A stretch of DNA of 64,000 nt from Candidatus Bathyarchaeota archaeon (GTDB lineage: Archaea; Thermoproteota; Bathyarchaeia; 40CM-2-53-6). Position numbers and translations under genes: made by a program. Shown here in pieces: positions 50,666 to 60,905 of the stretch. Position 1 is the first letter of the stretch, and each line of letters opens with the position of its first letter. The stretch spans positions 1,216,001-1,280,000 of the forward strand of contig CAVSBL010000002.1 in assembly GCA_963726255.1 (NCBI GenBank). Reading direction: 5' to 3'. The notes below the pieces were generated by a model. The model made no database searches. It was not told where the DNA came from and saw nothing but the letters and a program-made list of their open reading frames with translations.

Positions 50666-51472
50666 TTGGCAGCTGCCTTGAGCTACGTCGACGCCCACCT
50701 GCACCTAGCGGACACCGGCTACGCAGGCCGAACAGAACAAGCCATAGCTGATGCCGACAAGAACCACGTTGAATATCTTCTCTCAAACGCAGTCGATTAT
50801 GAGACGGCAATTAAAACGATAGCCTTGGCGAGGCAACATCCCTCGAAGGTTCTCGCGGCCGTAGGAGTTCATCCGTGGACAGTCACGAACACAACGAATT
50901 ATTATCTCGGAAAATTTGAACAACTCATAGACGAAAATGTTGGTTACGTGAGTGCAATTGGCGAGATAGGGCTCGACGGAAAGTACAGCAAAGATCAGAA
51001 GATCAAGGAACGCCAGTTAGAAGTTTTCAGGTTTTTCCTTAAGCTAGCAGAACGCAAACGGCTCCCAGCCGTAGTCCACTCAAGGCTGGCTGTAGATGAA
51101 GTATTGGGAACCCTTCCTGACTTTCACATCCCCAAAGTCTTGTTGCATTGGTACGATGGACCAGTGAACAAGTTTCGAGTGATCAAGGAAAGAGGTTACC
51201 TGGTATCTATTGGGCCAGCAGCACTCTACTCTCAAGCAATAAGTGAAATTGCGCGCAACGCAGACTTAGGCATGATTCTAAGCGAGACTGACGGCCCTGT
51301 AAAGTATCGCGGACCCTTCGAAGGCCGGCCTACCGAGCCTTCGTTTGTTGTAGACGTGATTCGAAAGGTAGCTGAAATCAAGAATCTTGATACCGAGGCG
51401 GTGCGAGAAGCAGTCTGGCGCAATTTTGAAACCCTCATACCGCACCTGAGCGGGCGTAGGCAGCTCCACTGA
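50666..51472 (+). CDS. TatD-family deoxyribonuclease
   Basis: DAHLH, GVHPW, IGEIGLD, VHSR, LHW, ETDGP. Confidence 0.92.
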   Translation: MAAALSYVDAHLHLADTGYAGRTEQAIADADKNHVEYLLSNAVDYETAIKTIALARQHPSKVLAAVGVHPWTVTNTTNYYLGKFEQLIDENVGYVSAIGEIGLDGKYSKDQKIKERQLEVFRFFLKLAERKRLPAVVHSRLAVDEVLGTLPDFHIPKVLLHWYDGPVNKFRVIKERGYLVSIGPAALYSQAISEIARNADLGMILSETDGPVKYRGPFEGRPTEPSFVVDVIRKVAEIKNLDTEAVREAVWRNFETLIPHLSGRRQLH

Positions 51473-51599
51473 CCTTGTTCGGTCTCCAATTCTTCCTTAA
51501 CTACTCGCGGCTACAGGTAAGACCTGACGTAAACGAATTCACAGGCGTGCCGGAATCCATGTTTGGAGGAACGAGCGGCTAAGCATCGTACACTATGGT

Positions 51600-51770
51600 T
51601 CACTTAAGCGAAGCAATAATTGTAATTCGGTCATTTCCAATGTTGTGAATGCCGCAACATGTACATGGGTGATAGATGGTCCCCCAACATTTCTTATGCT
51701 CCTCACATAGGCATGCAGGACAATCACCACTCCACCCTGGGTCGAGTACCCTTGACTCCGTATCAGGCAA
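51600..51770 (-). CDS. Putative Cys-rich zinc-binding microprotein (56 aa; not in ORF track)
   Basis: MPDTESRVLDPGWSGDCPACLCEEHKKCWGTIYHPCTCCGIHN...; TATA-like CTTAAATA about 25 nt upstream. Confidence 0.55.
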   Translation of the reverse strand: MPDTESRVLDPGWSGDCPACLCEEHKKCWGTIYHPCTCCGIHNIGNDRITIIASLK

Positions 51771-51872
51771 GCCGGCATCACGCCCTATGGCTCTATTTAA
51801 GCACCCAAATATTGGCAGTGTAACCTAAGTTACAATAGAGAGAGGACACAACCCGTCAAGAACTCGCATTAA

Positions 51873-51915
51873 GGTTCTATCTAATTGACGGGGTCTAAAG
51901 AAGGCTGACAGAACC
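51873..51915. mobile_element. 43-bp mini-element made of two IS6-type ends
   Basis: GGTTCTATC...TGACAGAACC flanked by CGCATTAA and CGCATAAT; left end 17/20 identical to the terminus of the large element. Confidence 0.65.
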
Positions 51916-52980
51916 CGCATAATCAAATCAAATCGCAAGCGGGACACGGCCTCTACACGGTCGTTAATGATAATCATCTTCGTGCTTGGCGTTGCAGTTG
52001 CCCCGACCACATCTATCGTGAAGTTAAATGCAAGCATATTTGGGCTGTTGAGTTCAGCCTAAGACTGCGAGAAAAAGTCAAAGAAAATGTTTTGCTCGAA
52101 CCAGTCATAATCAACGCTTGCTTGTTCTGCAAATCAGATTTGATTTTCAAGGATGGCTTACGGCATAACAAGTTTGGTGATATTCAGAAGTGGAATTGCA
52201 GATCATGTGGAAGATACTTCACGGTCAATGTTGGCTTTGAACGAATGAAGCACAATCCACAGGGAATAACCGCCGCAATGCAACTGTACTTTTCGGGCGA
52301 GAGTCTACGGAATACGGCTCGCTCGCTTCGATTGATGGGTGTTGAAGTCAGTTATCAGACTGTCTGGAATTGGATCGCGAAGTACACAGCTTTGATGGAG
52401 AAATACCTAGCCCAAATTACACCAAAAGTTAGCGACACTTGGCGAGCCGATGAGCTATACATGAAGTTTCACGGCGACATGAAATATGTTTTCGCCATGA
52501 TGGACAATCAAACCCGATTCTGGATAGCCCAAGAAGTAGCCGACACCAAAGACACGCATGACGCACGGCACTTATTCCAAATGGCGAAAGAGAAAGCGGG
52601 AAAGAACCCGCAAATCCTCATAGCCGATGGGTTGCGCTCATACCATGATGCGTGGCTGAAAGAGTTTCGGACCAACAAGCTATCGGATAGCACCGTTCAC
52701 ATTCGCCAAATCACTTTGGCGGGTCAGCACAATAACAACAAGATGGAGCGACTTAACGGTGAGATTCGTGACCGTGAGAAGGTTACTCGTAACCTCAAGA
52801 AACCGGATAGCCCCCATCTTAACAGGTTATCAGATTTACCACAACTATGTTCGCCCACACATGGGCTTAGACGGCAAAACCCCAGCAGACGTGGCGGGAA
52901 TCAAGGTTCAGGGAGACAACAAGTGGAGAACACTCATAGAAAATGCAAGCACAAAGCGAATAATCCGCCAAATTCGATAA
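51916..52980 (+). pseudogene. IS6-family SWIM-DDE transposase, 5'-truncated and frameshifted
   Basis: SWIM motif CSCPD...KCKH upstream of the listed start; WRADE, ADGL, NNNKMER; extra C in the run at 52811-52815. Confidence 0.88.
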
Positions 52981-53058
52981 GAAGCCCTTCGAACTCAGAA
53001 GTCAAGAACATAGTGTGACTTGCATCGTGCATTGGCGAGAATCTTCTCGCTTAAGCTC

Positions 53059-53382
53059 TTATTGGGCGTCTGGAGCTGGGGTCAGCCCGAGCGCCTTTCT
53101 GACATCTTTCTCCGCGTCATCTGAACCTATTGTATGCGTACTCCAGGCCAAAAACAAACCAAGCGGTGTCCAGCAAAAGTCTAACTGTCTTTCAGGTTGC
53201 TGGTTTGTCTTTCTGATCCGATCAAGAATCGCATTGATTCTTCTAGTGGCCTCCTCAAGCTCAGAATCATGGAAGTCGGTAAGTCTTTCTGCGCTGGCAA
53301 GCACTGCATCATTACAGCCTGTTCCTGCTCCACAACAGTGCATCACACCCTTCTCGGTCCACCCATGTTTACTTTCTATCAT
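53059..53382 (-). CDS. Hypothetical cargo protein, paralog of 53389-53706
   Basis: Shares ELE.AT..INAILD..R..N..P.R.L.F..TP.G.F..W with its neighbour. Confidence 0.75.
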   Translation of the reverse strand: MIESKHGWTEKGVMHCCGAGTGCNDAVLASAERLTDFHDSELEEATRRINAILDRIRKTNQQPERQLDFCWTPLGLFLAWSTHTIGSDDAEKDVRKALGLTPAPDAQ

Positions 53383-53388
53383 AGCGAT

Positions 53389-53706
53389 TCACTTTATCCC
53401 AAGCGCTTTATAGACCACATCCTCATCGTCATCAAAACTCACAACGTGCCGAGTCCAAACGATAAAGGGACCGTCAGGAGTTCTTATGAACGCAAGCTCG
53501 CGAGTGGGATCATGATTCTTCTGTCGCAACGTATCCAGAATTGCGTTTATCTCTTTGGTGGCTTGCTCAAGTTCAACAGGATGACACTCTGTTAAGTGCT
53601 CTGCGCCAACCAACTCGCAATAAACCTGACCGTTAACATGTGACGTAAAGCAAACTATGCCAGTCCCTTTCGGGTTGCAAGCCCAATCATAAACCGCTGT
53701 TCTCAT
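53389..53706 (-). CDS. Hypothetical cargo protein, paralog of 53059-53382
   Basis: Same conserved core; 6-nt gap between the two genes. Confidence 0.75.
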   Translation of the reverse strand: MRTAVYDWACNPKGTGIVCFTSHVNGQVYCELVGAEHLTECHPVELEQATKEINAILDTLRQKNHDPTRELAFIRTPDGPFIVWTRHVVSFDDDEDVVYKALGIK

Positions 53707-53783
53707 GAGAACTCAGAATAAATATGACTCGACAGGATTTAACACTTTCCAGTGCATAGAGACTAAACACGATTGCCGAGATC

Positions 53784-53852
53784 AACCGACGAATCTTGAC
53801 AACGACAAAAACCAAACCAATCAGGCAGAACCGACGGCAACTTGACAGCACC
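53784..53852. repeat. Right end of the truncated IS6-like element, with two subsites
   Basis: AACCGACGAATCTTGACA (53784-53801) and AACCGACGGCAACTTGACA (53829-53847), terminating in GCACC. Confidence 0.75.
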
Positions 53853-53944
53853 CGCATTAGGGTTCTGTCAAACCCTAGGGAGATAATTGTCATTGTCAAA
53901 AGCGGGAGATGCCTAGGAGGCGAACGTTAACTTCAAAATCTTTC

Positions 53945-54418
53945 TCATGGGAGACTGAGTAGACCTTCGGACAACGCCCACACAATCAATGTTCCAATCC
54001 AGAGAATCGCCAAATAAGAGCAGAGCATGATTCCAAGGATAGTCTTTGACCTTATGCGAAACAAGTGAATCATGCGTTTTCCGATTATTACCGAACCTTT
54101 CTGCCTTAATGTCTGCAAATAATGTTGAGTCTTAAGTCCCATCTTGTTCTTCGTTTCGATCTCAAGCATCCGTTCTCGACAAACATCTCTTATTCCTATG
54201 CTTCTATTTACAAATAGACCCCAGCCGCCTAAGACAATACTCGATAATAGTGCTACCGCGCCCAATCGCGCAAAGCCAATGTGACTACTAAGAACGAAAC
54301 CTGTAGCCGCTAATGAGCCTCCAAACAAGAAGGACCCCCAGCTCCAGTTTTGTGTGTCTAAATGCTCGATTGTATGTTGGCACAGCTCGTATTCTTTAAG
54401 CAAGGGATTGTCTGTCAT
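53945..54418 (-). CDS. Small multi-TM cargo protein
   Basis: LKEY..helix, two TM segments, R..EIE, C-terminal TM. Confidence 0.7.
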   Translation of the reverse strand: MTDNPLLKEYELCQHTIEHLDTQNWSWGSFLFGGSLAATGFVLSSHIGFARLGAVALLSSIVLGGWGLFVNRSIGIRDVCRERMLEIETKNKMGLKTQHYLQTLRQKGSVIIGKRMIHLFRIRSKTILGIMLCSYLAILWIGTLIVWALSEGLLSLP

Positions 54419-54463
54419 ACTGCGTTACCTTTCGTTTGGTGCTAGAAATCCATTTTTGTTATA

Positions 54464-54584
54464 GGTTGCCGTGAAGGCTTCTAGGTGGACCGTTGCAATC
54501 GGCCGACCTCCCCTGTTTCCTAAAGGATAAATCAGGATATTTTCGAGGTTCTGCAACGGGTCTTTAGCTCTGGTCACGGCAACC
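54464..54584. mobile_element. 121-bp MITE-like element nested in the transposon
   Basis: Perfect 11-bp IRs GGTTGCCGTGA / TCACGGCAACC; right flank CGCATTTA. Confidence 0.65.
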
Positions 54585-54856
54585 CGCATTTATTCTTGAA
54601 ACTAGCTATTTTCGGCTTGCGTTCTGGGGATAACGCGTCGTTGTCGTTTGGTATGGGAAGGCGAGGCAAACCGTTTGGTATAGTGGATTTAGTCTAATTC
54701 GGATATGGGGTTTCGAAGTATGCTATGGCAAACTGGACAAGAATACGTGGGGTCATTACGCACAGCCGAACCTATGTGATATACACAACCACAGTCGCTA
54801 CATGCGACAATATTGGAACTCAATTTCCTGTGACCTTATTGCAAAAAATAGGGGGA

Positions 54857-55519
54857 TTAGTCCGTGTCCAATTCAGTGTATGTTTTCTTGTATTCTGGGT
54901 AATCTCTGTGGACGCGCTCACGGATTGTCTTCGGGTCAAGTGGGAAGATACGTTCCTTAATGCGTAAGATAGTTTCTTTGAATGGGTCAGCAACGGCAGA
55001 CAACAACGCAGTTGCGACTTGCATACCCGAAGGCGTTAGCTCAATCAGAACAGACTGATCCTTAGGATTTGACCCCCATGGCTGAAAGCTAGATGAAACC
55101 AAACCCTTAGAGCCCAGTCGGTCTTGGTCGGATTCCAAGTGTTCTGGGACTGGCCCCCGTGGGAATGCCACGAAATTGTCATGTGGAAATACTTCACCTA
55201 ATCCCTTTTTCCCAAGTTCCTTCCAGATATAGAACAATGTCTTGTTCACATGGTATCGTGTGGGTAACGAACCCTCTTTGAATACTCCTGGTTTTACGTA
55301 AAGTGTCAGTAGCGTCGCGATATCCCTCGGCTTAAGGTCGTATTTTTTCGCTAAAGCCTCATATTCCGCTAGAGATACTTGTGCGGGGTAGAGCCTTACT
55401 TTCCCAGTCTTCGCGTTCATGATGGCAGGCACATCCTTTAGATGTATAGGATTTCCTCGCCAATCCAGCGTATCCAGTTCGATTTTAGTGGGCAACCACT
55501 CATTTTCTATTGTATTCAT
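54857..55519 (-). CDS. Putative antitoxin with SocA/Panacea-like winged-helix domain
   Basis: NKTLFY, F.A.PRGPV, GLV, ELT..G, VH.DYPEY; ATGA overlap with the upstream gene. Confidence 0.6.
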   Translation of the reverse strand: MNTIENEWLPTKIELDTLDWRGNPIHLKDVPAIMNAKTGKVRLYPAQVSLAEYEALAKKYDLKPRDIATLLTLYVKPGVFKEGSLPTRYHVNKTLFYIWKELGKKGLGEVFPHDNFVAFPRGPVPEHLESDQDRLGSKGLVSSSFQPWGSNPKDQSVLIELTPSGMQVATALLSAVADPFKETILRIKERIFPLDPKTIRERVHRDYPEYKKTYTELDTD

Positions 55520-55773
55520 TTTCTCATTATCCTTTTTTGTTTCTGCGCTTCTCTCACGCCTATGATGGTAATCTTGCCTCCTTCTCGGTGGCAACTTACG
55601 CCATACCTGTTTCCATCAGGTAGCGTCACCATCTCTTGCCATTTTCCTTTAGCCTTAGGTCGTGACGCATAAGGGTTCTCTGCCATCTTATGCCGGATCT
55701 GCTCAAGTACGGCAGGAGGCAGTTTAGTAAAGACATCTTCGGCAACGATAATGTCTACATAGTTTTCTGTCAT
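55516..55773 (-). CDS. Small basic putative toxin (RelE-like size and layout)
   Basis: 85 aa, translationally coupled to the downstream gene; fold inferred only. Confidence 0.5.
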   Translation of the reverse strand: MTENYVDIIVAEDVFTKLPPAVLEQIRHKMAENPYASRPKAKGKWQEMVTLPDGNRYGVSCHREGGKITIIGVREAQKQKRIMRK

Positions 55774-56034
55774 GTGAGCCTACGCCTTGGTGTGGCGAGG
55801 CGAGGCATCCAATGTGTGTCCCTTTGCCACTGAGGAGGACTTGACTCGATTACATAGGCGTACTAATGGACATGGTTGTTCTAATTTAACTGTTACTCGT
55901 GATAATCGTGATTCGTATGTTCGAATCATAGATAGAGGCTCCGCTTCTTTCCATGAGAGAGCTGTGTGAATGAATATAAAGCACCTTTGATGGGATTTTT
56001 CGCTGGAATTTGACGGAAAGGTAGCCAAACTCGT

Positions 56035-57168
56035 CTATTTCTTGCTTCTACTAGCATTTTGGATTATCGTAAACCATTTGTCTTGTCCATTGATTTGGAT
56101 ACCTGCCTTCTCGGCTGGTGTTTTGCCATCTAACGCTTCGTGTGGGCGTATGTAGTTGTGGTAAATCTGATAGCCTCTTAGGATTGGTGTGTCCGATTTC
56201 TTTAGGCCGCGAAAGACCTTTTCTCTGTCCCTGATTTCTCCATTGAGTCGTTCCATCTTATTGTTGTGATGCGTTCCTGCGAGCGTGATATGTCGAATGT
56301 GCGTTGTGCTAGTCTCTAGCTTGTTCGTTCGGAATTCTTTGAGCCACGCATTATGATATGACCGCAAGCCATCAGTTATGAGAATCTTAGGCTTCTTCTC
56401 TGCGACTTCCTTAGCTATTTGGAATAGGTGTTGTGCATCGTGGCGTTCCTTTGAATCGGCTACTTCTTGAGCTATTAGGAATCGGGTTTGGTCGTCCATG
56501 ATTGCGAACAGATATTTCATGTCGCCCTTGATTTTCACGTATAATTCGTCTGCTCGCCATGTGCCTGAGACTTGGGGCGTGATGTTGTCTAGGTATTTCG
56601 CCATTAGAGCCGTGTATCGCTTAATCCAGTTGTAGATTGTTTGGTGCGATACTTCCACGCCTTGAAGTCGCAGAAACTTCTTGGTGTTCCGTAGGCTCTC
56701 ACCTGTGAAGTAGAGTTGAAGTGCACTCGTAACGATTTGCGGTGTGGCCTTCAATCGCTCGAAACCTAAGTTTCTCACGAAACGCTTTCTACAACCTTTG
56801 CATGTGAACCGTTGAATGTCCCCGTTCTTGTTGTGACGTAAGCCATCTCGCACTAGGGCTTGCGAACCGCAGTAGAGGCATGTGGTTAGGTCGAGTGGTT
56901 TGATTACTACTTGGTTGCTGACTTCGGCTCGTAATGCTTGCGAGAATTCGACAGCCCAAATATGCTTACACTTAACCTCACGATAGATATGGTCGGGGCA
57001 GGAACAACGCCAAACACGCCCACGTCTCACAACGGAATAGAGGCCGTTGCCTGATTGTGAGGATACTTGGTAGGTTCGGTCATCTAGGCGTTTCACTTGG
57101 TTGCCTAGTTTAACGATAGCTTGAGCTTTCATCACGCGACTTTCGCTCAACGGTTGTTCGGTTCGCAT
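56035..57168 (-). CDS. IS6-family DDE transposase with N-terminal SWIM and Zn-ribbon domains
   Basis: CSCPD..CKH, CLYCG..CKGC, HTH (VEVSHQTIYNWI), WRADE / ITDGL / NNKMER triad, YNYIRPH-like tail. Confidence 0.92.
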   Translation of the reverse strand: MRTEQPLSESRVMKAQAIVKLGNQVKRLDDRTYQVSSQSGNGLYSVVRRGRVWRCSCPDHIYREVKCKHIWAVEFSQALRAEVSNQVVIKPLDLTTCLYCGSQALVRDGLRHNKNGDIQRFTCKGCRKRFVRNLGFERLKATPQIVTSALQLYFTGESLRNTKKFLRLQGVEVSHQTIYNWIKRYTALMAKYLDNITPQVSGTWRADELYVKIKGDMKYLFAIMDDQTRFLIAQEVADSKERHDAQHLFQIAKEVAEKKPKILITDGLRSYHNAWLKEFRTNKLETSTTHIRHITLAGTHHNNKMERLNGEIRDREKVFRGLKKSDTPILRGYQIYHNYIRPHEALDGKTPAEKAGIQINGQDKWFTIIQNASRSKK

Positions 57169-57197
57169 CTCAATCCCTACCGCAATATTGCAGCACT

Positions 57198-57401
57198 GTG
57201 AGGATGATGGTGAGAAAGGAGATACTCGGAAGTTCGGAGCGGAAAATCATTGAGGCATACGTTAGTGGAGAACGATTGAAGGGCTATACCGCAGTTCTAT
57301 TTCGAATCCGGCACATCGGATTGAGGGAAATCATTCAGGGTTGCGAACACGACCTAGCACTGTTGAAAAGACTCGCTAAGTTGGAATCAGAACGTACGTG
57401 A
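57198..57401 (+). CDS. Small helical protein divergent from the transposase
   Basis: 67-aa ORF starting about 30 bp from the transposase start. Confidence 0.6.
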   Translation: MRMMVRKEILGSSERKIIEAYVSGERLKGYTAVLFRIRHIGLREIIQGCEHDLALLKRLAKLESERT

Positions 57402-58478
57402 CCCTCGTTTTACCGCGACAAGAGGCAAAAACTCGAATAGCATTGCTATTCCAACAAAGATTAGCGCAGATTCAGTAACATCTGGACTAATCTTGCCGAA
57501 CCAACCGAGAATGCCAATAAGAACCAGAATAAACGCTGTACCAATGATTATTGCCTTATGACGCGTAGGTAGTTTTGCTATTGCTAGAATCTTCGATTCT
57601 GTACAGTCCAAAGCGTTCTCATATGCAACCGCCAAAGCTGGCATTAGTTGCGTTTTCCTTAGCTTTATCTCATCTACCTTGAAGCCCTGAAAACATTGTT
57701 TGATGTTCCGCGCATCAAGTTCATGTATAGCTCGTGCCCTTGTAGTGGGGGCAATTCCGTATTCGGCCAATTCGTAAGATACGATTACCACTTGGGTCAA
57801 TTCTCGTTTTTCTGAATCTGGGCAAACCACAACAAACAAGTGCTGTTCTCCTGCACCAGTACGAAATAGCCAAATGTTGTGGCGTACCTCCTCCTGCTCC
57901 TCGATGCCCAGTGTGTATTGAAAATCGGCATCAATGAACTTGCCAAGCACATTGGTGTACTTCGCATGCACGAGGAATTGTTTGACTAACAAATCATCTT
58001 TAGTACCAAGCAAACCCACTAGACTCCTAGCTATTGGGGAAAGTACGGAATAGGCAACGACAAGTAGCAAGAACATTGTTACAGCTAACAAAATTCCATA
58101 CAGTGAAACAAAAGAATCCCAATTTAGTACAACCAAGAATCCGCGCCTGTAAAGTAGGTCGAGAATTAGTACCGCTATGATTGGAGTTACTAGAACTTGA
58201 ATCTGCGTGGGAGATACGAATCTCTTCGGCTGAAAGGTTAGAGACGCACCTACGGAATATGCGACGACGAAGAGATTGTAGGCCAACAGTAGTATGAGCG
58301 TTGAGGTCAAATCGGCTCGGAATACTTCTGTTACGAACCAGAGTCCGATGGCGCTGCAAGCTGTGGCTCCAAGAATTACTGCTGTAAACTGAGGCAAGAT
58401 TCCCTGTTTCTGCAATCTTGACTGGTATGAAGCCAAGGATTTTCCCGACCTTAGTCCAGCAATTTGCAAACTTAACAT
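57387..58478 (-). CDS. Multi-TM hypothetical cargo protein
   Basis: Four N-terminal TM segments, a soluble domain, two C-terminal TM segments. Confidence 0.7.
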   Translation of the reverse strand: MLSLQIAGLRSGKSLASYQSRLQKQGILPQFTAVILGATACSAIGLWFVTEVFRADLTSTLILLLAYNLFVVAYSVGASLTFQPKRFVSPTQIQVLVTPIIAVLILDLLYRRGFLVVLNWDSFVSLYGILLAVTMFLLLVVAYSVLSPIARSLVGLLGTKDDLLVKQFLVHAKYTNVLGKFIDADFQYTLGIEEQEEVRHNIWLFRTGAGEQHLFVVVCPDSEKRELTQVVIVSYELAEYGIAPTTRARAIHELDARNIKQCFQGFKVDEIKLRKTQLMPALAVAYENALDCTESKILAIAKLPTRHKAIIIGTAFILVLIGILGWFGKISPDVTESALIFVGIAMLFEFLPLVAVKRGSRTF

Positions 58479-58619
58479 TTGGCCTCAACCGAGAGTAAGC
58501 GCCATCTCCCGCATTTGACGGATGATTTTGTCTCCCGTCGATTTGACAGAACCCGCATTAGCAAAGTTTATGTTGAATGCGCCTCGCTGTGTGCTCAGTT
58601 TCAACTAAGGTGGCTACGT

Positions 58620-58871
58620 TTGGGGAAGGTACGCACCGACACTGTGAAGCGAGTTTCGAGAGAGGTACTTAGAAGGTTCCCTGAACGTTTCGCCGGCGAC
58701 TGGGAATCGGACAAGCAGGCCGTCAACGACCTAGTCTCGACACAGTCCAAAAGGTTGCGTAACAGAATAGCGGGCTACGTCACTAGGCTAAAGGTTGTGG
58801 AAGCGGAACGCGCAGCCGCTACTGAGGTTGCTGCTGAGGCTCCTGAAGCAGAGGAACCCAGCGAAGAGTGA
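58620..58871 (+). CDS. rps17e: 30S ribosomal protein S17e
   Basis: MGKVRT..VKR...SKRLRNRIAGYVT; TTG start. Confidence 0.95.
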   Translation: MGKVRTDTVKRVSREVLRRFPERFAGDWESDKQAVNDLVSTQSKRLRNRIAGYVTRLKVVEAERAAATEVAAEAPEAEEPSEE

Positions 58872-58997: not shown

Positions 58998-60905
58998 TTG
59001 CACATCGTAGTCTGTGTGAAGCATGTACCCGATGCTACGGACATTCGTTTTGACCCAATTACGCTTAACCTGATCCGTGAGGGTGTCCCTTCAATCGTTA
59101 ATCCCTTCTGCCTCAATGCCATCGAAGAAGCAATTCGGCTAAGGGAAAAGTTTGGGGGCAAAATCACCGCGGTATCCATGGGGCCGCTACAAGCGCAGGA
59201 AGGCTTACGCGAAGCCCTCGCCATGGGTGCTGATCGCGCAGTGATGGTTTCGGATAGGGAGATGGCGGGCGCAGACACCTTGGCGACCTCCTATACGCTC
59301 TGGAGAAGCATTGCAACGATAGCGGAAACTGAGCCCTTTGACCTAATCCTAAGTGGAAAGGTCGCCATCGATGGCGAAACAGGCCAAGTTCCACCAGGCC
59401 TTGCTGTAAGATTCAACATTCCCATCATTTCGAACGTCACGAAAATAGACCAAGTCGACATCAAATCCCGAACGATAGTTGCAAAGCATAGGTTCGACGA
59501 CGGTATTGAGACTGTTCAGGCAAGATTCCCGGCCGTTCTCACGATTACTGAAGAAGCAAACAAGCCAAGGAAATTCACGATTGAAGGCATGCTGAACGCG
59601 AAGAGAGCAAGAATCGAAATTTGGGATAAGCAGGCGATAAATGCTGATCCCAATCTTTTGGGCCTCAAGGGTTCTCCTACCATCGTGAAGAAAGTCTTCC
59701 CACCTCCCGGACGGAAACAGGGGGAGGTTTTCGATGGGACTAGGGACCCGCACGCCGCGGTGAAATGGTTAGTTCAGAACCTCTTCCAAGTTCATGCTTT
59801 CGGGCCAGCGCCTCCAAAGGCCGCCGAAGCGTTGCCGAAGTCCCCGAACGAGAAGGCGGCGATTGAAGACGCGGGAAAGTACGGGGAGGTTTGGGTTTTC
59901 GTTGAACATTTTCACGGAAAACCGGCAGCAGTCTCATGGGAACTCTTGGGGGAGGGAAGACGGCTCGCAGGGATCTACGGAACTAAGCTCGGGGCACTGA
60001 TAATTGGAAACCGCGTGGATCACCTAGCGAAGGAATCATTTGTTCACGGCGCCGACAGGGCCTATCTGGTTGAAGATGAACGGCTTGAGAATTATCGCAC
60101 GCAACCGTACGCTGTTGCCATGGAAGAAGCCGTGAGGAAATTCAAGCCCGAGGCCCTGCTAGTAGGCGGAACCATTAGGGGCCGAGACTTAGCGGGCTCG
60201 GCAGCGACCTTTCTGGAAACAGGCCTAATTGCGGATTGTACCGCTTTGGACGTTGATATGGAAACTGGCACGTTCATGGGCACGAGGCCTGACTACGGCG
60301 GCAACCTGATGTCCACCATAATCTGCCCCAAGAATAGGCCTACGATGGCCAGTGTCCGCCCACGTGTAATGAAGAGCGTACCACCAGAGCAGAATAGGGA
60401 CGGCGAGATAGCCCATGTTGACTTGAACCTCAAAGACACTGACGTAAACACGGACATCTTGGAGTTCGCCCCGATCGAGAAAGTAGACGTCCGCCTAGAA
60501 GATGCTCAGGTTATCGTCTCTGGGGGAAGAGGGCTGGGGGCAGGTAAGAACTTCCAATTAATCGAGGAACTCGCAAAGACTCTCCAAGCCCAAGTCGGAG
60601 CCTCAAGGGCAGCAGTACGGGCTGGTTGGATAAGCCCAGAGCACCAAGTTGGCCAAACAGGGTTCACGGTCAGACCACGGTTGTACATCGCAGTTGGCAT
60701 TTCAGGAGCCATCCAACACATTGTAGGCATAATGAACGCGGACTACATCGTCGCGATAAACCGAGACCCCGAAGCACCCATCTTCAAGATGGCGAATTTC
60801 GGCATCGTTGGCGACCTGTTCAAGGTAGTCCCAGCCTTGATTGAAGAGCTGAAGAATGTACACCTAGCTGAGTTAGCACCATGGCAGAGAAGTTCGACTC
60901 GGTAG
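58998..60905 (+). CDS. Fused ETF beta-alpha (FixA-FixB)
   Basis: Beta motifs CVKHVPD, GADTLATS, DGETGQV, GSPT; alpha motifs GLIADCT, SGGRG, QVGQTG, GISGAIQH. Confidence 0.92.
   Translation: MHIVVCVKHVPDATDIRFDPITLNLIREGVPSIVNPFCLNAIEEAIRLREKFGGKITAVSMGPLQAQEGLREALAMGADRAVMVSDREMAGADTLATSYTLWRSIATIAETEPFDLILSGKVAIDGETGQVPPGLAVRFNIPIISNVTKIDQVDIKSRTIVAKHRFDDGIETVQARFPAVLTITEEANKPRKFTIEGMLNAKRARIEIWDKQAINADPNLLGLKGSPTIVKKVFPPPGRKQGEVFDGTRDPHAAVKWLVQNLFQVHAFGPAPPKAAEALPKSPNEKAAIEDAGKYGEVWVFVEHFHGKPAAVSWELLGEGRRLAGIYGTKLGALIIGNRVDHLAKESFVHGADRAYLVEDERLENYRTQPYAVAMEEAVRKFKPEALLVGGTIRGRDLAGSAATFLETGLIADCTALDVDMETGTFMGTRPDYGGNLMSTIICPKNRPTMASVRPRVMKSVPPEQNRDGEIAHVDLNLKDTDVNTDILEFAPIEKVDVRLEDAQVIVSGGRGLGAGKNFQLIEELAKTLQAQVGASRAAVRAGWISPEHQVGQTGFTVRPRLYIAVGISGAIQHIVGIMNADYIVAINRDPEAPIFKMANFGIVGDLFKVVPALIEELKNVHLAELAPWQRSSTR

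Follow-up and report, generated by a model that had tools for sequence, protein, structure and literature searches.

IS6-related transposons stacked upstream of rps17e in a Bathyarchaeia genome and their probable targeting of core-promoter edges

Insertion sequences of the IS6 family, such as IS26, are compact and encode nothing but the transposase, with a length of ~0.7–0.9 kb that reaches 1.7 kb in the long clades. Their consensus ends combine GG, cTGTt and caaa motifs, and a single member is named as carrying a passenger gene (PMC7986276). According to reviews, the long forms bearing a zinc finger stem from Clostridia. Harmer and Hall argued that the archaeal and the long bacterial groups fall outside the IS6 family proper, and found no experimental data for archaeal members (PMC6807381). 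Here, we describe archaeal elements of this kind in a 64-kb stretch of DNA ("the window", positions 1216001–1280000 of contig C2) of a Bathyarchaeia genome, termed G000. The 7.1 kb separating tatD from rps17e are filled by mobile DNA that comprises four or more IS6-related transposons, or what remains of them, stacked one after another, and a CGCAT… octamer follows each of their right ends. A survey of relatives makes it likely that the family targets the upstream edge of archaeal core promoters, which consist of a B recognition element (BRE) and a TATA box, and that the stack is a by-product of re-use of one such site.

The elements share with IS6/IS26 a DDE core that matches IS6 profiles and an 8-bp duplication; their tips, in which GG is followed by CTGT..CAA, also resemble the family consensus. 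With the long clostridial IS6 clades (clade h; clades VII–VIII) they share an N-terminal zinc-binding extension. They differ from IS6 in size and gene content (2.3–6.9 kb with cargo, compared with ~0.8 kb), in their ends (~50 bp with two subterminal repeats, compared with 14–20 bp), in their strong positional target choice and in their archaeal hosts. A full-text literature search, confined to main articles without supplements, yielded no description of promoter-adjacent targeting or same-octamer stacking by archaeal IS6-like elements, and the accessible parts of PMC7986276, PMC6807381, PMC6563490 and PMC13343696 hold no account of either.

The stack between tatD and rps17e

The interval is made up as follows (window coordinates).

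50666–51472, plus strand: tatD, the upstream gene and left border of the hotspot (Pfam TatD_DNase, E 6e-56)
51852–51864, plus strand: oldest right-end relic, 13 bp, CCCGTCAAGAACT, read directly and missed by the end model
51865–51872: octamer CGCATTAA at the junction ..GTCAAGAACT/CGCATTAA
51873–51915, plus strand: element rump of 43 bp, left end GGTTCTATCTAATTGACGGGG ... right end CTGACAGAACC
51916–51923: octamer CGCATAAT at the junction CTGACAGAACC/CGCATAAT, directly adjoining the 5'-truncated tnpB
51924–53852, plus strand: unit B, a decayed element with right end CCGACGGCAACTTGACAGCACC (end model score 14.4)
51924–52980: tnpB pseudogene in unit B (Pfam DDE_Tnp_IS240; 63% identity to tnpC by tblastn)
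53059–53382 and 53389–53706, minus strand: tandem cargo open reading frames (ORFs) of unit B, paralogous (51%)
53853–53860: octamer CGCATTAG at the junction TTGACAGCACC/CGCATTAG, centre of an end–8 bp–end palindrome
53861–58553, minus strand: unit C, a transposon of 4693 bp with identical CGCATTAG on both sides (8/8 duplication)
53861–53913, plus strand: left inverted end of unit C, in which (C)TCCC..N5..TTGACA occurs twice
54554–54592, plus strand: internal relic in unit C, an eroded right end ..GGTCACGGCAACC plus CGCATTTA (junction GGTCACGGCAACC/CGCATTTA, octamer at 54585)
56035–57168, minus strand: tnpC, intact transposase of 377 aa (SWIM-type CxCx12CxH, 4-Cys zinc ribbon, helix-turn-helix, DDE core)
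57198–57401, plus strand: 67-aa ORF divergent from tnpC, matching no Pfam or NCBIfam family
58501–58553, plus strand: right inverted end of unit C, ..CTCCCGTCGATTTGACAGAACC (end model score 19.8)
58554–58561: promoter-proximal octamer CGCATTAG at the junction TTGACAGAACC/CGCATTAG, the presumed live target
58562–58572, plus strand: predicted BRE (CAAAG) and TATA box (TTTATG) of rps17e, assigned from the consensus
58620–58871, plus strand: rps17e, the right border of the hotspot (TTG start, MGKVRTD..., from translation and tblastn in 14 loci)

An earlier note on this DNA had described five end–octamer junctions, all of which we recovered at the same coordinates. The two end–8 bp–end palindromes that it reported are of unequal quality: that at 53842–53871 is clean, whereas that at 51852–51883 is degenerate. 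As the note observed, the last octamer abuts a BRE/TATA-like sequence; this sequence, CAAAGTTTATG, is kept before rps17e in 14/14 relatives' loci aligned (12 genomes). Within the window, GACAGAACCCGCAT occurs with at most one mismatch only at 51907, 53844 and 58545 (the remaining 8 listed matches carry 2–3 mismatches), and the 14-mer of end plus octamer is confined to the stack junctions. CGCATWW alone is not enriched (34 found, 28.9 expected) and the signal therefore lies in end and octamer combined. The two copies of CGCATTAG, at 53853 and 58554, result from one ordinary duplication around unit C and do not represent separate choices of target. The 14-mer formed by the octamer and the start of the left end has a third copy, CGCATAAGGGTTCT (13/14), at 55666–55679 inside an 85-aa ORF; within this plausible coding frame it is probably there by chance, but could be another fossil junction.

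Unit C, nearest the promoter, is the best-preserved member of the stack, with inverted ends of 53 bp that are imperfect (38/53 positions identical). Towards tatD, the units are ever more eroded: tnpB lacks ~33 codons at its 5' end and has a frameshift near 52810, and the last bases of the octamer CGCATAAT may represent a deletion joint. Two of the ends, at 51864 and 54584, are eroded to relics and escaped the end model described below. The former is also present in L082, the closest relative, where homology extends up to 51883. The inner part of the 43-bp rump is homologous to the relic at 54554–54584; over its full length of 54554–54592, this relic resembles the rump at 51886–51923 and has no equivalent at the corresponding position of the related G015 and L082 elements. 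Contigs of sequencing run X1, which may be the assembly's own source sample, span the junctions at 53853 and 58554. A joint of 54677 to 56057 in run contigs was not used, its shorter side comprising only 24 letters.

The transposase places these elements close to IS6. Residues 136–339 of tnpC matched positions 1–200 of 202 in NCBIfam NF033587 (IS6 family transposase) with 125.2 bits, only just passing the cut-off of 125, and tnpC matched Pfam DDE_Tnp_IS240 with 61.7 bits (cut-off 27). Residues 1–135 form an extension holding the SWIM-type motif and the 4-Cys zinc ribbon. The Cys/His columns of this extension were invariant in an alignment of 38 homologues, and the Pfam SWIM match stayed just under its cut-off (19.5 compared with 19.6 bits). 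The element tips GGTTCTGTCAA fit the IS6 motif, and the ends extend to ~53 bp, each with two copies of a subterminal motif ~31 bp apart. The assignment in the earlier note of IS6-like elements with a SWIM-type DDE transposase and 8-bp duplications thus stands, and so does its count of at least two different ones, as the stack contains two subterminal motifs (CTCCCG-N5-TTGACA and CCGACG-N5-TTGACA) and two transposases, tnpB and tnpC, that are 63% identical. End classes comprise ATCTCCCG-N5-TTGACA, CCGACG-N5-TTGACA and a third class terminating in TTAACAGAACC.

Target duplications, stacks and promoter register across the family

A homology search returned 77 loci with related transposases, hosted by Bathyarchaeia, Nitrososphaeria, Atabeyarchaeia, Methanoregula, Thermoplasmata and a few contigs labelled bacterial. 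Searching 70 related loci for short inverted ends near the transposase gene (GG start, at least 11/16 match) gave almost nothing useful. Because the elements are much longer than the transposase gene, we used a 30-nt end profile instead, built from the last 30 nt of 19 seed ends. This profile yielded 135 candidate ends in 91 loci and G000 itself, 107 of which score at least 10 and terminate in CC or TC; a second-round profile gave 198 candidates, forming 85 left/right combinations within 12 kb. The flanking octamers were identical (8/8) in 42 of these 85 combinations, with ~0.001 expected by chance. Elements with a transposase and a verified duplication were 2.3–6.9 kb long and had extra ORFs aboard. 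The family makes 8-bp duplications of arbitrary, A/T-biased sequence, for instance CTTGGCGG, TTGTCTTT, TGTTTTTA, CCCCAACC, TCATTTAT and CCAAGAGT.

These octamers bear directly on what is recognised. The earlier note had proposed that the transposase reads the sequence CGCAT(T/A) itself and had set beforehand, as a test for refutation, the flanks of related elements elsewhere. Junctions carrying CGCAT.. do exist, with five of them in the window, three in G015 and four in L082, but every one of them belongs to a single orthologous site, where the same octamer has been copied. Elsewhere, the octamers are unrelated to CGCAT: 33 left/right pairs with at least 7/8 identical flanks carry other octamers, from CCCCAACC to ATAAATGA, and sister species have ACCATTAG, CTGATTAG, TAAGGTAG and TCAATTAG at the very same site. 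The empty site that the note expected in relatives does exist in one genome, G010, where it reads GGTAGCAG and not CGCATTAG. We therefore regard recognition of CGCAT as very improbable. CGCAT was correctly taken as target DNA, however. That it might be part of the element end is ruled out, since CGCATTAG precedes left ends in direct and not in inverted orientation and is missing from elements elsewhere, where the flanks differ.

Three transposase-less derivatives with family ends and perfect 8-bp duplications occur in G000 outside the window.

C2:896495–897017: 523 bp, duplication TGGAGGCA, no TATA in register
C2:1721832–1722261: 430 bp, duplication CCCGATGC
C2:1995203–1995816: 614 bp, duplication CATCGGCC, TTTAAA in register

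At six other places with transposase fragments in this genome, no recognisable ends were found downstream.

Stacking proved to be common. Another outward-facing end lay at exactly 8 bp for 26/107 ends, and of the 20 other spacings from 0 to 20 bp, 19 had no case and one, 10 bp, had a single case. The octamer was constant within a stack and different between stacks:

L017: AGAAATAG, at three or more junctions
L020: TGCCGCGA
L034: ATATTCAA
L024: TGATAAAG
L072: TGTTTTAG
L053: CCAAGAGT
L059: TCATTTAT
G017: CTGATTAG
window and L082: CGCATTAG
G015: CGCATTAG, CGCATCAG, CGCATCAG

The octamers are most simply explained as target duplications of 8 bp made one after another at the same place, and the five of the window, some of them eroded, as copies of one ancestral target; they are alike because each copies the previous one. 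In L081 (5039–7802), two stacked elements are separated by the octamer ATAAATAA, which on the promoter side recurs as its reverse complement, TTATTTAT; this suggests an inverted 8-bp spacer or an intramolecular replicative event. This single case would fit the intramolecular replicative inversion of IS6 described in PMC7986276.

The palindromes could also be read as lox/FRT/dif-type core sites at which a conservative site-specific recombinase acts, the units then being cassettes that cross over in an identical spacer. The geometry recalls such sites, in that two inverted arms of 11 bp enclose a spacer of 8 bp whose sequence is constant at each locus but varies from locus to locus, and L081 offers one inverted spacer. 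Yet the outer junctions are half-sites (end, 8 bp and unrelated DNA), the 8-bp duplications around single elements are as plain as in other DDE transposons, and a Pfam scan of nine stack ORFs revealed no integrase and no tyrosine or serine recombinase family. This explanation thus appears highly unlikely to us. Nor does the stack show the hallmarks of an integron (tyrosine integrase, attI, cassette promoter, attC), as its unit borders are transposon inverted ends with duplications. The integron-like cargo array of the earlier note accordingly holds in that cargo is carried; the analogy itself is loose, with no integrase among the Pfam-scanned ORFs and no cassette promoter seen.

Beyond the duplication, one flank of most elements continues with an A-rich pentamer and a TATA-like hexamer (e.g., CAAAG-TTTATG, AAAAG-TTTATA, CAACA-TTTATA, CAAGT-TTAAAA, AAATA-TTTATA), giving it the look of an archaeal core promoter; the archaeal BRE/TATA consensus was our basis for calling these boxes promoters. 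To quantify this register, the word TT[TA]A[TA] was counted at each offset from the element end, offset 13 being 5 nt past the duplication. At this offset it was present in 19/73 unique flanks that do not abut another end (0–4 at other offsets), in 13/65 flanks once orthologous flanks were clustered, and in 12/52 clustered flanks of duplication-verified elements. For the latter, offsets 20–59 served as control (mean 0.57, maximum 2; Poisson p ~1e-12). These counts understate the share of elements, because a promoter is possible on only one flank per element. If looser words in register are admitted (CTTATA, TATAAA, GATATA and others), the share rises to ~24–26 of ~30 distinct sites, as judged by eye and with no formal test. 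The boxes point outward, and genes begin at suitable distances: start codons follow at +45 to +51 in L047, L053, L055, L071 and L072, and a tRNA-Asn lies at +60 in L025. By our own reading of the flank list, the box is faced by either element end, in ~13 cases each. The conserved determinant is the predicted BRE/TATA, which the earlier note had mentioned for the last octamer only.

A register of this kind might also arise by selection alone, if insertion were near-random or A+T-preferring and damaging insertions were purged, after which a compact genome would retain insertions just in the short gap from a stop codon to the following BRE. The A/T bias of the duplications agrees with this view, as does the empty site of G010, where tatD and rps17e are 64 bp apart (reading ..TAA CGAAGGTAGCAG CAAAGTTTATG) and just 12 nt separate the tatD stop from the BRE. 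However, kilobases of dead element should be neutral ground, and yet later insertions re-enter the same 8 bp, as seen for the 26/107 ends above. Moreover, the register peak is one offset wide apart from a spill-over to offsets 14–15 and has no tail to larger distances, and in two Nitrosocosmicus genomes (L055 and L071) elements of opposite orientation occupy the identical octamer CTAAATCT beside AGATTTTTATG. Selection by itself hence seems an improbable explanation.

The tatD–rps17e interval offered a view of repeated entry within the genus. Synteny of the two genes is kept in 14/14 loci mapped. Ends or transposase fragments are present in 12/14 intervals, which measure 116 bp to 7.1 kb, and an end-like sequence plus 8 bp stands directly before CAAAGTTTATG in 11/12 relatives' genomes aligned. 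The interval of G005 holds an 838-bp insert in which no ends were recognisable. Octamers at this site are species-specific in their first half (CGCATTAG, CGCATCAG, ACCATTAG, CTGATTAG, TAAGGTAG, TCAATTAG, and further TTAATTAG, AGATTTAG, TGAATTAG, CCTATTAG). Between the window and L082 the flanks are 91–99% identical, yet different elements occupy the site. The L082 arrangement, in which 51883 is joined to 53845 without the window stretch 51884–53844, also appears in contigs of runs X1 and X2, and two strains differing by this 1961-bp stretch seem to co-occur in the same sediment samples. In G015 the order is ..CGCATTAG, unit, CGCATCAG, unit, CGCATCAG, promoter. The derived CGCATCAG flanks the promoter-proximal unit only, and the distal junction retains CGCATTAG, as do three sister genomes. 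This pattern fits a mutation of the octamer that was followed by a new insertion on the promoter side. As in L055 and L071, the different elements of the window and L082 show that one site was entered independently more than once, and the site-selective, repeated entry of a harmless site that the earlier note proposed to explain the stack is upheld.

Proposed targeting mechanism and accompanying genes

We consider it likely that the family targets the upstream edge of BRE/TATA core promoters and that stacks arise as a by-product of site re-use. On this reading, the interval would be a chronological stack of at least four insertions by one family of cargo-carrying IS6-related DDE transposons, all into the same 8-bp target directly upstream of the rps17e core promoter. 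The target would be a position rather than a sequence, namely the 8 bp whose edge lies 5 nt from the TATA box, at the upstream border of the BRE, a placement that would spare both the core promoter and the neighbouring gene. Each newcomer would cut the promoter-proximal copy of the octamer and land between the older element and the promoter, whereby the octamer would be copied again. Such a sequence of events would explain the CGCAT… after all right ends, the end–8 bp–end junctions and the decay that rises away from the promoter. The transpososome might locate the position through read-out of BRE/TATA DNA by the extra zinc domains of the transposase or through bent DNA bound by TBP/TFB, and either element end could face the promoter.

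Stacks could alternatively be built by guidance from the resident end, in that a transposase-bound end captures the incoming transpososome and a staggered cut is made in the adjoining 8 bp. The promoter would then matter only at the first hit, or via selection. This scenario resembles targeted integration by IS26 and repeat targeting by IS30 and IS911, and own-end targeting is documented for members of the IS26, IS3 and IS30 families (PMC7986276). It also agrees with the exact 8-bp spacing of 26/107 ends, and stacks of at least three elements with no visible outer promoter exist in the L017, L024 and L034 loci. In contrast, solitary elements, which have no resident end beside them, already lie in TATA register, and the octamer pattern of G015 puts the newest insertion on the promoter side. 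Like the present stack, IS26 targeted conservative integration gives arrays where an element already sits and employs the same transposase superfamily. In IS26 arrays, however, one copy of the insertion sequence is common to neighbouring units, matching copies are needed and no new duplication is left, whereas the present stack has entire elements abutting, with a copied octamer between them, and these elements differ in end class and have transposases of just 63% identity. We thus judge guidance by the resident end to be unlikely as the whole explanation; it may act as an added effect alongside promoter targeting.

Several points speak against promoter targeting, or weaken the case for it. 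For stacks, guidance by the promoter and by the resident end predict the same product. The internal relic at 54554–54592 requires an additional deletion or end-capture step, and the promoter-proximal unit of L082 holds a transposase fragment only, so that it would need to have been moved in trans or to have decayed later. The BRE/TATA boxes were assigned as promoters by consensus only. By eye, 4–6 of ~30 distinct sites have no convincing TATA in register, for example L017, L037, L039, L061 and the 523-bp derivative at C2:896495 of G000. Intergenic spacers are short, and selection against disruption of promoters or genes could therefore sharpen the register. Finally, most of the data are metagenome-assembled genomes, and the end model was seeded with ends of this locus and its relatives.

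Promoter targeting might go further and be guided by the archaeal pre-initiation machinery. TBP/TFB-bound, bent promoter DNA would then be recognised by protein contact or DNA shape, and integration would occur one helical turn upstream of the TATA box. We put this forward as a tentative idea that is rather doubtful at present. If correct, it would account for a single rule being shared, irrespective of the octamer, across Bathyarchaeia, ammonia-oxidising archaea, Methanoregula and Asgard contigs. A structure prediction of the transposase with the TFB core and TBP scored 0.00, which is neither support nor counter-evidence. G000 encodes four TBP and two TFB paralogues (contig C2):

121102–121677, 438921–439514, 997411–997974 and 1773713–1774231: TBP genes
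522512–523411 and 734166–735095: TFB genes

Unit C carries 5–6 ORFs besides the transposase, and most cargo ORFs of the interval are oriented away from rps17e. Pfam, NCBIfam and PADLOC assigned no credible function to the cargo ORFs, the only matches being two sub-threshold ones to the 85-aa ORF, and an Rfam search over 51400–58700 gave nothing credible (a single match with E 0.33, under the gathering score). Homologues of the 67-aa ORF (56–70% identity by tblastn) are found at the same position upstream of the transposase in L018, L020, L048 and L074, and its small product may have a regulatory or accessory role in a subgroup of Bathyarchaeia. A 64-nt segment at 54616–54679 is 94% identical to a segment in the related element of G015 and 84% to one in that of L082, amid differing cargo. 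In both relatives it sits just upstream of minus-strand cargo ORFs, and it may be an internal promoter or leader; a partial second copy lies at 55787–55807, and the segment had no Rfam match. Downstream of rps17e (58998–60905), a 635-aa ORF resembling a fused electron transfer flavoprotein is open in G000. Its match has one in-frame stop in seven relatives (TGA in G014, G017, G010, G005, G002 and G009; TAA in G013), which may reflect two genes in the relatives and a fusion in G000, or recoding.

Relation to other targeting systems and significance

Apart from IS26, the abutted ends and the short fixed spacer recall IS30 and IS911, which target their own repeats and form (IS30)2-type junctions. 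To our knowledge, the spacer of IS30/IS911 junctions does not copy a target duplication that recurs at the outer borders. A further difference is that solitary elements of the present family are already linked to promoters. There is also a likeness to safe-haven targeting, as known for Tn7 at attTn7, Ty3 at TFIIIB, Ty1, Tf1 and the Dictyostelium TRE elements at pol III or pol II promoters, in which insertion occurs harmlessly at a fixed distance from a conserved expression landmark and the site is re-used. Those systems either are eukaryotic retroelements or rely on a heteromeric bacterial transposase equipped with a dedicated target selector, whereas we deal here with a single-transposase archaeal DDE transposon for which contact with a host factor is only proposed. 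TFIIIB includes TBP and a TFIIB-like factor, to which archaeal TBP and TFB correspond. Integration guided by TBP/TFB would be the prokaryotic equivalent of what Ty3 does at promoters bound by TFIIIB.

Known IS6 members are described as small, cargo-free and largely indifferent as to where they insert at new sites; the archaeal branch studied here is widespread, cargo-carrying and complex-ended, and it inserts in fixed register to TATA boxes, on their upstream side. If confirmed, this would be the first case of promoter-edge targeting by an archaeal DDE transposon in the literature searched, and it would provide a testable link between transposition and the TBP/TFB machinery common to archaea and eukaryotes. 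It would furthermore offer a computational marker of archaeal promoters for genomes that lack transcript data and, possibly, a tool for harmless site-directed integration in archaea. Should guidance by TBP/TFB hold true, stacking would make promoter-upstream sites natural landing pads for cargo genes, where neighbouring ends could recombine into new composite transposons. For the organisms themselves, promoter-edge targeting would, if confirmed, explain why accessory genes of uncultured archaea repeatedly gather in hotspots upstream of housekeeping genes.

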